From contig CAKPCB010000002.1 of NCBI GenBank assembly GCA_934141245.1, positions 43,076-107,075 of the forward strand: a DNA stretch of 64,000 nt. The letters are read 5' to 3'. The notes beneath the pieces are model-generated. The model saw only the letters and a program-made list of their open reading frames with translations, had not been told where the DNA came from and did not search any database. Made by a program: the position numbers and the translations under genes. Positions within the stretch are counted from its first letter, which is position 1. Each line of letters opens with the position of its first letter. Below are positions 6,971 through 55,386 of this stretch, in pieces. The DNA comes from an uncultured Bacilli bacterium (GTDB taxonomy: Bacteria; Bacillota_I; Bacilli_A; RF39; UBA660).

Positions 6971-7708
6971 GTGAAGATAATGCAATCAATAAAAGTGATG
7001 GGAATAATAGTAAGTGAAACTAATTATAGCGAATCTAGTAAAATACTTAATATATTGACTAGGGATTTAGGAATAATTAGTGTAATATCTAAAGGATGTA
7101 GAAAGCTAAAAAGCAAGTTAAGAAGTGTAAGTACAAAACTTATATATGGTGAATTTATTATTAGCTACAAAAAAGATGGACTTTCAACATTAATAGATGT
7201 AAATAGCGATTATATATTTAGAAACATAATGAGTGATATTAATACAATCAGCTATGTGTCGTTTATTGTTGAACTTGCAACACAAGTTGCTAAGCAAAAT
7301 AATGATGCTAATATTTTTGATATTTTAATAACTGCTTTAAAAAAAATAGAATTAGGACTTGATCCTTTTGTGATACTTCTTATTGTTGAATTAAAATATT
7401 TAAATTATTTGGGCTTAAGTATTAGCTTAGATTGTTGTAGTAATTGTGGTAATAGTAATAATATAGTAACACTTAGTAGTGATAGGGGAGGCTATATTTG
7501 TAGTAATTGTTATCAAAATGAATTAATAGTAACTAAAAAATCAATTAAAATTATTAATTTGTTGTACCATGTGGAATTAAACAATGTTACAAAAATTACT
7601 TTATCCGATAAAACAAAACAAGAAATAAATTCATTTTTAGATGAATATTATGATAAATATAGCGGATTGTATTTAAAAAGTAAACATTTTATAAAATTAA
7701 TTATTTAA
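6971..7708 (+). CDS. recO: DNA repair protein RecO
   Basis: 245 aa; C-terminal CxxC...CxxC zinc finger (CCSNCG...CSNCY); conserved position after era. Confidence 0.85.
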   Translation: MKIMQSIKVMGIIVSETNYSESSKILNILTRDLGIISVISKGCRKLKSKLRSVSTKLIYGEFIISYKKDGLSTLIDVNSDYIFRNIMSDINTISYVSFIVELATQVAKQNNDANIFDILITALKKIELGLDPFVILLIVELKYLNYLGLSISLDCCSNCGNSNNIVTLSSDRGGYICSNCYQNELIVTKKSIKIINLLYHVELNNVTKITLSDKTKQEINSFLDEYYDKYSGLYLKSKHFIKLII

Positions 7709-7716
7709 GAACAAAA

Positions 7717-7735
7717 GAATAAAAAATTTTTATTC
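7717..7735 (+). terminator. Weak palindromic terminator after recO
   Basis: gaataaaaaatttttattc perfect palindrome. Confidence 0.35.
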
Positions 7736-7744
7736 GAATTGGTC

Positions 7745-8340
7745 GTCGATGATTCCAACATTCCTACTTCATAGAAAAAGTAACCTTTATTCTCCATAGG
7801 CTTAAATCCCAATAGTCGCTACCGTACTTTTTTGCTTTCTATTTTTTTCTATTGCTTTCTTCTTTATTTTTATTTAACTTGCAAAGTGCTTTTTTATCCC
7901 TTCAAACATAATATTTATACTTGCATTTATATCTCTATCATTTGTATTGCGACATTTTTTGCATTCCCACACTCTAATTTTTAAATCATTTGTTATTTCT
8001 GTTTTACTATCACAGTGACTACATATCTTACTACTTGCATAATAGGTATCTACTTGATAATAATATTTCCCAAGAAGTTTTGCCTTTTACTTGCCTACAT
8101 AGTTTTCTTTGCATTCTTTTTAATCTTTTTTCTCTTTTATTTATCTCTTTTGGATTAGGGTATTTTTCTCCATCACTTGTTACTACTAAGTCCTTTATTC
8201 CAAGATCGATTCCAACTATACTTGTTGGTGTTATTTTTTTATGTGTTTCCTCTTCTTTTGTAAAAATTAAAAGATTATTGTTTGCATCTTTTATATCTAT
8301 TTTTATATTACTATATTTTTTGTTTTTATAAATACTCGTT
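7745..8340 (-). mobile_element. Degraded IS200/IS605-family element: internally deleted tnpB (IS605 OrfB-type RNA-guided nuclease) remnant plus right-end / omegaRNA-scaffold-like region
   Basis: Minus-strand translation gives ...SIVGIDLGIKDLVVTSDGEKYPNPKEINKREKRLKRMQRKLCRQVKGKTSWE (RuvC-I) then, after a frameshift with ~100 codons missing, VDTYYASSKICSHCDSKTEITNDLKIRVWECKKCRNTNDRDINASINI (TnpB zinc finger + RuvC-III). The GC-richer structured segment 7745-7880 lies downstream of it. Confidence 0.7.
7874..8245 (-). pseudogene. tnpB: tnpB pseudogene (no start codon, frameshift, RuvC-II region deleted)
   Basis: As above; stop of the zinc-finger frame at 7874-7876; N-terminal frame terminates at 8031-8033. 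Confidence 0.65.
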
Positions 8341-8386
8341 ATACAGTTTGTTCTATAGCTTTGTTTACTGAATTTACTTTTAAAGG

Positions 8387-8412
8387 TAAAAAAATAGGAT
8401 CAAAAATCCTAT
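8387..8412 (-). terminator. Rho-independent terminator of the arginase-family gene
   Basis: ataggat-caaaa-atcctat hairpin followed (on the minus strand) by a 7-nt T-run. Confidence 0.65.
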
Positions 8413-8422
8413 CTTTTACTAA

Positions 8423-9307
8423 TTAAAGCATATTAACTATTTTATTTATTAATTCTAAAACAATTTTAAGAGTTTTGTTATCTTTATCGTTTATGGGATT
8501 ATATTCAACTATATCTATTGATTTAATTAAATCTTTATGTTTTAAAAATTCATCAACAATCTTGAATAAATGTTTAGTATTTATACCGTCTTTATATCCT
8601 ACAGATATTCCAGGTGCAATAATCGGATCAAGAACATCTATATCAATGCTTAAGTGTATTCCATTTGTGTTTTGTGTTGCGATTTGAATTGCGTTATTTA
8701 CATTTGTTTCAATATTTCCTGATATAACATCATTTGTTGAATAGACTTTAATTTTACTATTATCCAAGTTTACCTGTTCTAAGGTATCAATATCTCTTGC
8801 TCCAATTATTACAGTATTGTTATTTCTGAAAAAATTACCATCATGGAATTTTGTAAGTTCATATCCATTATTTTTTGTTACAGTAGCAAGTGGAAGCCCA
8901 TGTATATTCCCCGATGCTGTTGTTTTAAATGTATTAAAATCAGGGTGCGTATCTACCCAAATTATTCCTAGTCTATCATTAGTTTTAATTGAAGCAAGTG
9001 CAGATGCAATTGCGATACTATGATCTCCACCTATCACAATATTTATTGAATCGTCATCGCTATTTTTTAATATTGTTTGATATAGTTCATCGTCAAATTT
9101 ATTAATTCTATCAAAGTTTTTTCTTAAATCATTTTTATCTTGACTTTTGCTAGTGCAATCACAGGTAACATCAATAATTTTATTTATTTTTTTCAAATCT
9201 AATTTCTTTATATATTCTTTAACAATTATAGGCCCTTTACTAGCGCCATCTATATTTACTCCGAGATCTGTACAAGCATTTATAATATTAATTTTTTTTG
9301 TATTCAT
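8423..9307 (-). CDS. Arginase/agmatinase (ureohydrolase) family protein
   Basis: 294 aa; GGDHSIA, DTHPD and SIDIDVLDP manganese-ligand motifs. Confidence 0.7.
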   Translation of the reverse strand: MNTKKINIINACTDLGVNIDGASKGPIIVKEYIKKLDLKKINKIIDVTCDCTSKSQDKNDLRKNFDRINKFDDELYQTILKNSDDDSINIVIGGDHSIAIASALASIKTNDRLGIIWVDTHPDFNTFKTTASGNIHGLPLATVTKNNGYELTKFHDGNFFRNNNTVIIGARDIDTLEQVNLDNSKIKVYSTNDVISGNIETNVNNAIQIATQNTNGIHLSIDIDVLDPIIAPGISVGYKDGINTKHLFKIVDEFLKHKDLIKSIDIVEYNPINDKDNKTLKIVLELINKIVNML

Positions 9308-48186: not shown

Positions 48187-51135
48187 TTATTTATTTACGC
48201 TATCAAGCTTTACACTAACTAACTTACTTACACCAGATTCTTGCATTGTTATTCCATATAACATATCAGCATATTCCATAGTTTTTGTTTTATGTGTAAT
48301 AATTAAAAATTGCGTTTTATCTTTATAATTATTTAAATATTGTCCAAAATTATCAACATTTGCTTCATCTAATGCAGCTTCTACCTCATCAAATAAGCAA
48401 AAAGGAATAGTTTTTATATTTAATATTGCAAAAATCAAACATATCGCCGTAAGTGTTTTCTCACCCCCAGATAGCAAATTTATTGATGTTAATTTTTTAC
48501 CTGGTGGACTAGCAATAATATCAATCCCAGTCTCTAATAAATTTTTTGGATCAGTTAGTTTTAATTCTGCACTACCACCTTTGAAAAGTTGTTTAAATAC
48601 TTTGTTAAATTCTATTTTTATATTATTAAATGTATTTAAAAACTCTTCTTTCATAACGGAATCCATTTCTTCTATTATTTCTAATAACGTTTCTTTTGCA
48701 TTTAACAAATCATTTCTTTGAGAAGACAAAAATTCATATCTTTCTGAAACTTTTCTATAGTCTTCAATAGCTTGAATATTTACCATTCCAATTCTTTTTA
48801 ATGCATCTTTATATGAAATAACCATTTTTCTTGCATCATCTTTATTAATTTCAAGAACATAATTTGCCTTAGCTTTTTCATAAGTCATTTCATAATCAGT
48901 ACTTAGAATAGATAAATAATTGTCAAGTTTAATATTCATACGATTTTGTGAAATTTCATGTTCTTTTAGTTCTTTCTCAAATTGATATAACGAACTATTA
49001 TTAACTTTAATTTTTGCTTGCTCCTCATCCAATTTAGAATTTATATCATCCTTTTGTTTCGTTAATAATTTTAGTTGCCTTAACATATCTTCTTTTTTTC
49101 TATTTGTATCATAAAATAAATTTAATATTCTTTCTTCTTCTTTATCTAGGGATGAGTCAATAATATTTTCTAATGACTTTAATTCTGATATAACCGCATC
49201 ATATCTTTCATTTAAATCATTATTAATATTATTTTTAATATTTATTTTTTCCTGCAATTGAACTATTAATATTTCATCATTTTTTATAGCAGTATTATTA
49301 GTATTTATTTTATTATCAATTTCTTCTAAACTACTTGGATATGTAGCTAACAACTCGTTTAATTCTTGTTCTTCATTTTTTAATTTGACTAATTCTTGTT
49401 TTTCAGAAAATATACTCTTTGTAACATTAATACTACCACCACTCATTGTTCCACCAACATGAACAACATCACCATCTAATGTAACAATTTTATATCTTTG
49501 ACCAATTTTTTTACTGATTCTATTAGCTGTATCAATATTATCTACTAATATTACATTTCCAAGTTGATTAGACACTATATTATAATATTTTTTATCATAC
49601 TGAACTATATCTGACATAATTGATAAATATCCATTATCATCACTTAATACATCCATAGTATCAAGATCTATTCCTCTTGGTTTTATAACACTAATAGGGA
49701 AAAAAGTAGCCCTTCCAAGTCTATTCTCCTTTAGATAATTAATAGCATTTTTAGCTGATACTTCATCATCTACAACAATAAATTGTTTTACTGATGCAAG
49801 TGAAACATCTAAAGCCTTAATATACTTTTCATCAGTATCTATCAAACTACCTAATGTATTATGAATACCATTTAATCTGGGATTAGATAAAACAGCTTTA
49901 ATACTAGAACTATATGTACCTCCACTTTCTAAAAAATCATTAATCATATTAATTTTATGTTTTACTTCGTTAAGTGACATTTTTTTATTATTAAATTCTT
50001 GCTCTAATGATTTTCTTTTTAAATATATATTGTTTATTTCTAACTGTAATTTATTAATTTTAATATTTAAATCCTCAAACTCTTTAGTTAATTCTTGAAT
50101 ATCTTTTTCTGTTTTATATTTATCGTTGTCAAGTTTTAACTTTATCTCTTTAAGGTTAATAATATTGTTATGAACTTTATCATCTGTTGCACTATATTTT
50201 TTTCTTTCATTAAATATTTTCTTTTCACCATTTAATCTTTCCTCTTCTTTTGTAAGAATTAAAAGATTATTGTTTGCATCTTTTATATCTGTTTCTAATT
50301 TCAACAGTTTAGATTTAAGTTCAATTATATTAGTGTCAAAATTAGTACCTTTCAAATTTAAATTCATTAGGGAATTATTTAACTCTTCAATTTTCTTTTG
50401 ATGTTTTTTTATGTCCTCATTTAATACTGTAATTTCATCTGCAAGCAATGAAACCTCAACATTTTTTAATTTTTCTTTTATATCCAAATATTCAGTTGCT
50501 TTTTCAGATTGCTCTTTTAATGGTTCAACTTGTATTTGTAGCTCACCAACAATGTCATCAACTCTCTCTAAGTTATTGTTAGTTTTGTCAAGTTTTTTTA
50601 AGGCTTCTTCTTTCCTCTTTTTATATTTTAATACGCCAGCTGCACTTTCAAAAATAAACCTTCTATCATATTCTGAATTTGATAATATTTTTTGTACTTC
50701 ACCTTGTGAAATTATATTAAATGAATTCTTACCAATTCCACTGTCTAAAAACATGTCTGTAATATCTTTTAATCTGCATTTTTCATTGTTTATGAAATAT
50801 TCATTTTCACCGCTTCTATACACTCTTCTTTTAACGGTTACTTCATTATAAGGTAAATTTATATAATTATCACTATTATCAAAAGTAAGTGAAACAGTTG
50901 CAACATTAAGTGGTTTTCTGCTTTTTGAACCAGAAAAAATAACATCACTCATATTAGTATCACCACGTAGTGATTTAACAGATTGCTCACCTAAAACCCA
51001 TCTTACTGCATCTACAATGTTACTTTTTCCACTTCCATTTGGTCCAACTATACATGTTGTTTTGCCGTTTAATTCAATTGTTAATTTATCAGCAAAAGAC
51101 TTAAAACCAGTTGCACTTATTTCTTTTAAATACAT
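48187..51135 (-). CDS. smc: Chromosome segregation protein SMC (short, 982 aa)
   Basis: N-terminal Walker A GPNGSGKSNI, hinge region, C-terminal LSGGEKTLTAI...LFDEVEAALD. Confidence 0.9.
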   Translation of the reverse strand: MYLKEISATGFKSFADKLTIELNGKTTCIVGPNGSGKSNIVDAVRWVLGEQSVKSLRGDTNMSDVIFSGSKSRKPLNVATVSLTFDNSDNYINLPYNEVTVKRRVYRSGENEYFINNEKCRLKDITDMFLDSGIGKNSFNIISQGEVQKILSNSEYDRRFIFESAAGVLKYKKRKEEALKKLDKTNNNLERVDDIVGELQIQVEPLKEQSEKATEYLDIKEKLKNVEVSLLADEITVLNEDIKKHQKKIEELNNSLMNLNLKGTNFDTNIIELKSKLLKLETDIKDANNNLLILTKEEERLNGEKKIFNERKKYSATDDKVHNNIINLKEIKLKLDNDKYKTEKDIQELTKEFEDLNIKINKLQLEINNIYLKRKSLEQEFNNKKMSLNEVKHKINMINDFLESGGTYSSSIKAVLSNPRLNGIHNTLGSLIDTDEKYIKALDVSLASVKQFIVVDDEVSAKNAINYLKENRLGRATFFPISVIKPRGIDLDTMDVLSDDNGYLSIMSDIVQYDKKYYNIVSNQLGNVILVDNIDTANRISKKIGQRYKIVTLDGDVVHVGGTMSGGSINVTKSIFSEKQELVKLKNEEQELNELLATYPSSLEEIDNKINTNNTAIKNDEILIVQLQEKINIKNNINNDLNERYDAVISELKSLENIIDSSLDKEEERILNLFYDTNRKKEDMLRQLKLLTKQKDDINSKLDEEQAKIKVNNSSLYQFEKELKEHEISQNRMNIKLDNYLSILSTDYEMTYEKAKANYVLEINKDDARKMVISYKDALKRIGMVNIQAIEDYRKVSERYEFLSSQRNDLLNAKETLLEIIEEMDSVMKEEFLNTFNNIKIEFNKVFKQLFKGGSAELKLTDPKNLLETGIDIIASPPGKKLTSINLLSGGEKTLTAICLIFAILNIKTIPFCLFDEVEAALDEANVDNFGQYLNNYKDKTQFLIITHKTKTMEYADMLYGITMQESGVSKLVSVKLDSVNK

Positions 51136-55210: not shown

Positions 55211-55386
55211 ATATAATACCTCCCTAATACCATGTTACAAATTGATTATATAATTTAAACATACGTTTGTAAAGAACAAAGAATAAATTAAGTCTTGCTA
55301 TTTTAACCATATTTTCACTTTACAGATGAAATATTTTTTATTCCATATGGATTTAAATTACGTAACGAACAAAAAAGCAAAGAATT

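Follow-up and report, generated by a model that had tools for sequence, protein, structure and literature searches.

A probable decaying relic of a tnpB-only IS200/IS605 element, with a degraded omegaRNA, between recO and an arginase-family gene in an uncultured Bacilli bacterium

The window analysed here is a 64-kb stretch of DNA (64,000 nucleotides; G+C content 26%) in which recO, at 6971-7708 on the plus strand (stop codon 7706-7708), and an arginase-family gene, at 8423-9307 on the minus strand, converge on a 714-nt interval. On the arginase side the interval opens with a terminator-like hairpin of that gene on the minus strand (AAAAGATAGGATTTTTGATCCTATTTTTTT, 8388..8417), read from the sequence; this hairpin is host DNA outside the insertion sequence and forms the upstream (5') limit of the feature studied here, homology to TnpB starting 3 nt downstream of it. 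From that point to the recO stop codon, the minus strand (7709-8384) carries fragments of a TnpB of the IS200/IS605 family. Translations from the window matched the Pfam models PF01385 (OrfB_IS605; 1.9e-12, 47.9 bits against a cutoff of 30.5) and PF07282 (Cas12f1-like_TNB; 7.2e-16, 58.5 bits against a cutoff of 26.3), as well as the NCBIfam model IS200_TnpB (4.2e-31), the last reaching 108 bits where the full-length cutoff is 425. Judged by these scores, the database matches lie far beyond chance. The original prediction had described the region as an internally deleted IS200/IS605 tnpB remnant and had tied that description to similarity with TnpB models (PF07282 or OrfB); the matches, together with the alignment described below, bear it out. 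Its start had been placed at 8340, and the TnpB homology in fact begins at about 8384.

The closest intact copy, from Clostridium sp. CAG:710, was used as the reference (L122); it encodes a TnpB of 375 aa at L122:337-1464 and has no tnpA. Alignment to L122 establishes, at the level of sequence, the identity of every fragment, the right-end boundary and three lesions. Read along the minus strand, a WED-domain fragment of ~29 codons (FKSKFSKQSYRTNCITSIYKNKKYSNIKID, 8299..8384; codons ~94-122 of the 375-aa reference), the peptide of which is also found in P0070, is followed by a tract at 8246..8298 that is identical at 52 of 53 positions to positions 50290-50238 of the window, within smc. Beyond it lie a RuvC-I fragment (HKKITPTSIVGIDLGIKDLVVTSDGEKYPNPKEINKREKRLKRMQRKLCRQVKG, 8084..8250; codons ~174-230; the PF01385 match), which stops at a deletion junction at 8084|8083, and a C-terminal fragment in a shifted frame (7874..8083; codons 307-375 plus the stop codon at 7876-7874; the PF07282 match), which holds the zinc ribbon (CSHC...CKKC) and the RuvC-III DRD motif. 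The first reading frame, at 8306-8064, contains VGIDLGIKDLVVTSDGE and has the RuvC-I Asp codon within 8213-8199; the second, at 8083-7874, reads KLLGKYYYQVDTYYASSKICSHCDSKTEITNDLKIRVWECKKCRNTNDRDINASINIMFEGIKKHFAS followed by the stop, with CSHC at 8023-8012, CKKC at 7963-7952 and DRD at 7939-7931. RuvC-I and then, after a frameshift, the zinc finger and RuvC-III thus sit on the minus strand where they had been predicted. Divergence from L122 is uniform along the relic, with identities of 73/79 (92%) for the WED fragment, 161/167 (96%) for RuvC-I, 183/197 (93%) for the TNB region and 128/137 (93%), plus indels, for the omegaRNA.

The first lesion is a 5' truncation. Homology begins at 8384 (codon ~94), with codons 1-93, promoter and left end all absent, and comparison with intact copies revealed no left-end sequence in the window copy. 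In the relatives, the left-end boundary is a T-rich ...TTAT/TATAT (the TAM) before (T/A)ATAAGGAA...; no left end lies beside a TAM in the window copy. The third lesion in order along the strand is a frameshifting deletion of 227 nt (L122 1028-1254, codons ~231-306) at 8084|8083, with the junction GTAAAAG|GCAAAAC and AAAG as microhomology. It removes about 76 codons of the 375-aa reference, fewer than the ~100 originally proposed. Because the RuvC-II region is deleted, no nuclease can be made, as had been anticipated from the loss of the RuvC-II glutamate: of the catalytic triad D-E-D, the aspartates of RuvC-I and RuvC-III are retained, and the region of the RuvC-II glutamate is gone, with the frame shifted.

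Between these two, the second lesion replaces ~142 nt of tnpB (codons ~127-172), immediately after ATAGATATAAAAGA, by the smc-derived tract. Its source corresponds to smc codons ~281-298 in the same orientation, and BLASTN within the window aligned 57 of 60 positions (E 1e-21). In a three-way comparison of the window, smc and L122, which was used to define the patch, both junctions fall in microhomologies (AGATATAAAAGA, 12 nt, on the left and GAGGAA on the right), the sequence found only in smc amounts to ~34 nt, and the tract is in frame with both smc and tnpB. The patch is no misassembly, because it is present in the independent assemblies L006 and L009. It has the textbook signature of templated repair or of a template switch, and would provide a clean natural case of a microhomology-mediated templated patch in a bacterial chromosome. 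The stretch KIDIKDANNNLLIFTKEEE, which had been read as TnpB, is largely this copy (8298-8246). A tblastn/blastn match at ~50.2 kb that resembled a second TnpB copy is smc, from which the patch derives. The original description as a tnpB remnant with its 3' end stands, the 5' truncation and the smc-templated patch having been overlooked.

With these lesions, the relic retains neither an intact TnpB ORF with a complete RuvC D-E-D triad nor a TnpB start codon, and the N-terminal HTH and WED/REC domains are absent apart from the WED fragment. No minus-strand ORF longer than 35 aa was found in the relic region, the longest in a TnpB frame being 32 aa. On this reading of the frames, no TnpB can be translated from the relic beside recO, and there is no intact tnpB elsewhere in the 64-kb window. 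A plus-strand ORF of 113 aa at 7990-8331 was rejected as an artefact of codon bias; the same antisense frame is open opposite the intact L122 tnpB.

Downstream of the tnpB stop codon, an A-rich spacer of 42 nt (7832..7873, minus strand), which carries a private insertion of ~12 nt relative to L122, leads into the omegaRNA scaffold and right end (7709..7831, minus strand). We built a covariance model, R1, from 28 non-identical omegaRNAs adjoining full-length tnpB genes. The family consensus comprises a P1 hairpin, P2 enclosing P3, P4, and a terminal palindromic hairpin, P5, and 8 of the 22 predicted pairs show compensatory changes in the alignment (n = 28). R1 matched the window over its full length at 7706-7831 on the minus strand (112.9 bits, E 1e-27), in the position and orientation of an omegaRNA; the claim that the tnpB 3' end and an omegaRNA scaffold directly follow recO was therefore correct. 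The elements map, on the minus strand, to 7824-7810 (P1), 7800-7796/7767-7763 (P2), 7790-7775 (P3), 7758-7739 (P4) and 7735-7717 (P5 hairpin), although the scaffold is degraded. Sequence common to at least 30 relatives stops at ...TGTTC, beyond which the flanks diverge; in the window this conserved terminus (TTTTGTTC, 7716-7709) abuts flanking DNA at 7709, flush with the recO stop codon. With the right end at 7709, the would-be guide is therefore TTAAATAATTAATTTTATAA (7689..7708, minus strand), host DNA that runs antisense to recO and covers its stop and last six codons. In a permissive scan, the Rfam family RF02841 (Ref70, Enterococcus sRNA 70) scored 22.2 bits (E = 1) over 7721-7830 on the minus strand, below its gathering score of 115. 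Eight relatives with better-preserved omegaRNAs gave no match to it at E<=1, and the literature searched makes no mention of Ref70; we treat this match as chance. A second trace of a right end and omegaRNA in the window, at 55274-55374 on the minus strand (28.6 bits, E 7e-5), is much more degraded and is unrelated in structure to the relic beside recO.

A protein search showed short TnpB fragments to be numerous in gut metagenomes. To place the relic among its relatives, we took a 25-nt motif (GGTAGCGACTATNGGNATTTAAGCC) that lies beyond the tnpB stop and scanned one genome per GTDB species for it, which gave at least 118 loci, hosted by MAGs of uncultured gut Bacilli or 'Tenericutes', by Candidatus Onthousia and by Clostridium sp. 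CAG:710. A full-length TnpB frame (about 375-393 aa) lies upstream of 33 of these loci, and many others are preceded by fragments or by nothing. In intact copies, conservation begins ~100-130 nt upstream of the ATG, right after unrelated host terminators, and the left end carries a TTGACA-17-TATAAT promoter. Since these copies have no tnpA and are bounded by conserved ends, they are tnpB-only (IS1341-type) elements. The family is very abundant in uncultured gut Bacilli. No name for it was found in anything searched, and the present work supplies an omegaRNA model (P1-P5, with covariation) and a right-end boundary for it. We also observed tnpB-less mini-elements in the relatives, consisting of the left-end promoter, a few codons, the omegaRNA and the right end. 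Within each of three sets (L059/L060, L050/L057 and L020/L030/L075), the internal junctions are the same although the elements sit at two or three separate loci, which implies mobilisation; elements made of a left-end promoter and an omegaRNA have thus spread in the lineage.

We then compared the window omegaRNA with those of its nearest relatives. Its R1 score of 112.9 bits is 24 bits lower than theirs (L122, 136.7; L001, 134.4; L016, 132.4). Of the 22 modelled pairs, 20 are intact and two are broken (non-canonical), and P5 is shortened. Private changes, polarised with L122 as the outgroup to the pair formed by the window and L001, comprise a C to T in P1 that turns a G-C pair into G-U, an A to G in the P1/P2 joining region, an A to T in P3 that breaks a pair (U-U mismatch), a GG to AT in P4 that destroys the apical helix, and a 5-nt deletion in P5. 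The scaffold folded alone has a minimum free energy of -19.9 kcal/mol (z +0.26) and is no stabler than shuffled sequence; neither the P1 helix of the family nor the apical helix of P4 forms in this fold. By comparison, P1-P5 were all recovered in the folds of L122 (-27.5 kcal/mol, z -1.97), L001 (-27.2 kcal/mol, z -1.73) and L101 (-32.9 kcal/mol, z -3.44), so that the structure in the window is not intact at the level of functional copies. Single-sequence folding of 7700-7900 gave no signal (z -0.03), and the omegaRNA structure is visible only from the family alignment. In the spacer and omegaRNA together we counted five private substitutions and two indels in 166 nt, against one substitution in ~190 nt of the adjacent coding remnant. 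That one substitution, the only private one in the TNB coding sequence, changes to Ala the Pro of YYPSSK, which is otherwise invariant in 20 relatives. The omegaRNA is not conserved better than the dead coding fragments, and destabilising changes accrue in it at least as fast. The scaffold has been kept because of its position at the undeleted end, and not through maintenance.

Independent metagenome assemblies of this species carry the recO relic at 99.97-100% identity, and its junctions were found solely at the recO locus (in the window, L006 and L009); contigs built from short reads tend to end within it, which is what a repeated sequence would lead one to expect. Judging from these assemblies, the relic has become fixed in the species. 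RecO identity drops to 68% and 62% in the next lineages, and no genome with a value between 68% and 99% was found in the collections searched. Both lineages have the gene order ybeY-dgkA-cdd-era-recO-cinA-murE-murG, with a recO-cinA spacer of 13-27 nt, and in the 68% lineage an arginase gene is also present, between cinA and murE. In these lineages cinA thus occupies the position of the relic, and they are too diverged for the exact pre-insertion sequence or the TAM to be reconstructed; cinA is not detectable anywhere in the 64-kb window. A further locus, L071, has arginase-murE in common with the window, but not recO.

From these comparisons we infer the following order of events and lesion mechanisms. 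The element would have entered directly behind the recO stop codon in the minus orientation, its right end facing recO. A later deletion would have taken tnpB codons 1-93 together with the promoter and left end, and probably cinA too. Some 142 nt of tnpB would have been replaced by microhomology-mediated template switching from smc, 42 kb away, and a microhomology-flanked deletion of 227 nt would have cost tnpB the region of the RuvC-II glutamate and put the remainder out of frame.

We consider it probable (roughly 0.86) that 7709-8384 on the minus strand is a neutral, decaying relic of a tnpB-only (IS1341-type) element of the IS200/IS605 family. The mechanistic reference for such elements is the homing described for the ISDra2 and ISGst TnpB-omegaRNA systems, in which, once TnpA has excised the element, TnpB-omegaRNA cuts the vacated donor site again and the element is thereby restored by copying (Meers et al. 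2023, PMC10055086). In the relic, the absence of a left end means that a TnpA-type transposase cannot excise or mobilise it, so that no donor joint arises. As the tnpB ORF and the promoter are gone and the scaffold is destabilised, no plausible role remains for it, and the best treatment of it is as neutral spacer DNA separating two convergent genes. The 714-nt interval should accordingly be annotated as a tnpB pseudogene with a degraded right end and omegaRNA, and not as a gene or sRNA.

The relic resembles IS1341-type elements in its TnpB HMM matches, in having the scaffold between the tnpB stop and the right end, and in the use of the flank as guide. Intact relatives, however, have a tnpB of 375-390 aa, a conserved left end with promoter, a right end in GTTC and no adjacent tnpA, whereas the window copy is without left end, promoter and codons 1-93, ~127-172 and ~231-306, and is immobile with no protein product. 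Like PATE or MITE-like derivatives, it arose by deletion and has kept its right end and omegaRNA; the mini-elements of this kind in relatives keep the left end and promoter and are thereby mobilisable and transcribable, whereas the window copy has lost both, and it is not one of several copies with two ends and the same internal structure. A likeness to TldRs lies in a TnpB-derived, RuvC-inactive sequence with a guide-RNA scaffold beside a host gene. TldRs, however, are conserved, uninterrupted ORFs in which the WED/REC domains are complete, and their guide is complementary to the target promoter (PMC10705468), whereas the relic has no ORF and its guide is the insertion flank, equal to the recO 3' flank alone. 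Its position, from the tnpB 3' end into the right end, is that of the sotRNAs, ncRNAs that overlap the 3' end of IS1341-type tnpB in the sense orientation and were detected as transcripts (PMC4615843); the relic is known from sequence alone. Decayed IS200/IS605 copies and omegaRNA-bearing PATEs have already been described (PMC10055086), and what is new is therefore confined to one more member of an IS family without a name and to the model of its omegaRNA.

The original prediction had suggested that such an element may persist as an RNA gene or as a first step of exaptation, and the score deficit, the broken pairs, the shuffled-like folding energy (z +0.26) and the loss of left end and promoter speak against this. 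On this view the relic would be a working omegaRNA gene without a tnpB of its own: the scaffold would have been retained because it is transcribed and serves a TnpB encoded at another place in the genome, either intact or devoid of nuclease activity, and it would act as a guide RNA or regulate recO as an antisense to its 3' end. The scaffold is still recognised at E 1e-27 with 20 of its 22 pairs intact, and on that basis may keep residual binding to TnpB supplied in trans; tnpB-less elements with a left-end promoter and an omegaRNA are many in relatives, some of them at several loci with the same junction; PATE elements often encode omegaRNAs that need TnpB in trans (Meers et al., PMC10055086); and there is a precedent in a solo omegaRNA upstream of pta that is far more conserved than its flanks (1/140 against 70/529 variable columns, p 7e-7). 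The window copy, however, lacks the left-end promoter that drives the mini-elements, and a scan of 7500-8600 showed no excess of promoters (10 sites against 8.3 expected in shuffles, none of them strong), although read-through from the co-oriented arginase-family gene could transcribe the omegaRNA. Private changes are more numerous in the omegaRNA than in the dead coding DNA next to it, and it has lost ~7.5 kcal/mol along with the P1 and P4 apical helices. The guide, moreover, matches its own flank alone in the window: beside this cognate site there is one site with 3 mismatches, no second target with <3 mismatches was found in the window, and the total of matches is at chance level; a tnpB to supply the protein is likewise missing from the 64 kb. 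We regard this explanation as unlikely.

A second alternative is that the relic has been exapted in cis, as the 3' UTR or terminator of recO, with the smc tract acting as a 53-nt antisense to smc mRNA and so coupling recO and smc. The P5 palindrome lies directly after the recO stop codon, and our scan found a single plus-strand terminator-like site before the 8388-8417 hairpin, a short one at 8212-8228, so that recO transcripts probably read into the relic; in such a read-through transcript, the smc tract (52/53 identical) would be antisense to smc. The argument is, however, purely positional. P5 on the plus strand has no U-tract, the microhomology-flanked patch is explained by repair or template switching with no need of a function, and comparative support is lacking, a close sister species not having been found. 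Exaptation in cis is thus highly improbable. That the omegaRNA, like the solo omegaRNA upstream of pta, is transcribed (by arginase read-through) and loaded in trans onto a TnpB-family protein from another locus, or that the smc tract acts as antisense to smc in recO read-through, appears very unlikely; if the former were true, the lineage would possess dispersed, chromosomally fixed guide RNAs, a guide repertoire with neither CRISPR nor arrays. Least credible of all is the expression from the relic of a TnpB-derived mini-protein (zinc ribbon and RuvC-III), for although many short TNB-only ORFs of 75-123 aa occur in metagenome protein sets, one of them an in-frame 123-aa HTH+TNB fusion at a relic between parB and soj (P0013), the sole ORF over the fragment in the window has 32 aa, a GTG start and no promoter, its invariant Pro is mutated, and the parB-soj counterpart is not conserved, being frameshifted in other assemblies.

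Having found the neutral relic to be the preferred reading of the recO locus, we note some observations on other loci of the family. The parB-soj relic is frameshifted in L001-L005, as against the in-frame fusion in L016 (P0013); these loci (L001/L016) and the window have no genes in common, and the listed samples do not overlap. Recurrent TNB-only proteins of 95 aa start at a conserved Met just after RuvC-II and lie mostly on ~1-kb contigs, and were set aside as gene calls on fragments or pseudogenes.

The solo omegaRNA upstream of pta was observed in four MAGs (L036/L056/L092/L105). It is left-end-truncated; the left-end promoter still lies upstream of it, a terminator hairpin follows closely, and the contrast in variable columns (1/140, against 70/529 in flanking coding DNA; p 7e-7) makes it apparently subject to constraint. 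The idea of exaptation is better placed at this locus than at the recO relic.

In the tnpB relic that adjoins the recO stop codon (7709-8384, minus strand), about 142 nt of tnpB have been substituted by a 53-nt tract (8246-8298, minus strand) identical at 52 of 53 positions to smc codons ~281-298 (50238-50290, minus strand, inside smc at 48187-51135). The tract is in frame with both smc and tnpB, is bordered by microhomologies of 12 nt on the left and ~6 nt on the right, and is also found in the independent assemblies L006 and L009. The tract resembles a patch left by template switching or ectopic repair, with smc, 42 kb distant, as the template. The omegaRNA end of the relic (7721-7830, minus strand) gave a weak Rfam match to Ref70 (Enterococcus sRNA 70, RF02841) aligned across P1 and P2; at 22 bits (E = 1) this match falls short of the gathering score of 115, and it was not recovered in eight relatives with better-preserved omegaRNAs.

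The relic also marks a difference in gene content. In the two nearest other lineages for this locus (RecO identity 68% and 62%), a 155-aa CinA-domain gene (PF02464) lies directly after recO (window 7709-8422 compared with L135:4730-5250 and L137:4736-5325). In the window species the tnpB relic takes its place, and cinA is found neither at the recO site nor elsewhere within the 64-kb window; the gene was probably lost through an IS-associated deletion.

A second right-end/omegaRNA trace was detected in the window at 55274-55374 (minus strand; 28.6 bits, E = 6.6e-5 with R1, our covariance model of the family omegaRNA), between an ORF ending ...KRKLFAKN* and a priA-like start at ~55210. It is far more degraded than the recO-linked omegaRNA, retaining AATTTAA, a hairpin resembling P2/P3, and the terminal TTATTCTTTGTTC, and has no TnpB coding remnant beside it. 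In a related gut Bacilli genome, another relic of the same IS subfamily lies between parB/noc and soj (L001:5858-6400, L016:4001-4540), and is 92-93% identical to the window copy over the 3' 355 nt. This relic has a single deletion, different from those of the window copy, joining HTH codons 1-~61 to the C-terminal zinc-ribbon/RuvC-III fragment (TNB); the fusion is an in-frame 123-aa ORF in L016 (P0013), but L001-L005 carry a frameshift. The relic keeps an intact left end and an intact omegaRNA (134 and 132 bits).

The tnpB/omegaRNA family seems to be in widespread decay across these small genomes. The metagenome-assembled genome (MAG) CAKOUW01 has at least seven omegaRNA-core copies (L020, L030, L039, L053, L061, L075 and L096), and the DNA fetched around these seven held no intact tnpB (0/7): one copy has a frameshifted full-length tnpB, and the others are fragments or mini-elements. 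Nine distinct TNB-only proteins (P0014, P0020, P0026, P0027, P0029, P0031, P0033, P0035 and P0038), each of 95 aa and with 60-70% identity to the window fragment, begin without exception at the conserved Met just past the RuvC-II motif; they probably represent genes called on fragments or in pseudogenes.

The mini-elements (~300-450 nt) consist of a promoter-bearing left end, a handful of codons, an omegaRNA and a right end, with tnpB absent or nearly so. Their insertion sites lie directly 3' of terminator T-runs (flank ...TTTAT(T) preceding (T/A)ATAAGG). An identical internal deletion junction is shared within each of three groups, L059/L060, L050/L057 and L020/L030/L075; flanking genes differ among the copies, which lie within one MAG, in the first and last of these, and the difference is seen in right-end flanks only for L050/L057. 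Identical junctions at differing flanks imply that these groups moved by transposition as non-autonomous PATE/MITE-like elements.

OmegaRNAs are also found beside host genes. An orthologous solo omegaRNA without tnpB lies upstream of pta in four MAGs (L036:4633-4751(-), L056:7606-7724(+), L092:2867-2985(-) and L105:777-895(+)), with a TTGACG-17-TATAAT promoter ~110 nt 5', a fixed guide (AGCGAGAAAAAAATGTTAAATC) and a terminator hairpin whose stems are kept and whose loop is hypervariable. Its scaffold and guide have 1/140 variable columns, against 70/529 in flanking coding DNA (P = 7e-7 by Fisher's exact test). This makes the pta-linked copy a candidate maintained omegaRNA, which would act in trans or as a regulator. 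An omegaRNA relic between ftsA and ftsZ (L017:5954-6077, plus strand) has a TTGACA promoter upstream; its would-be guide, directly after the right end (ATAACTGATTAAGGAGGAACAATC), spans the ftsZ ribosome-binding site.
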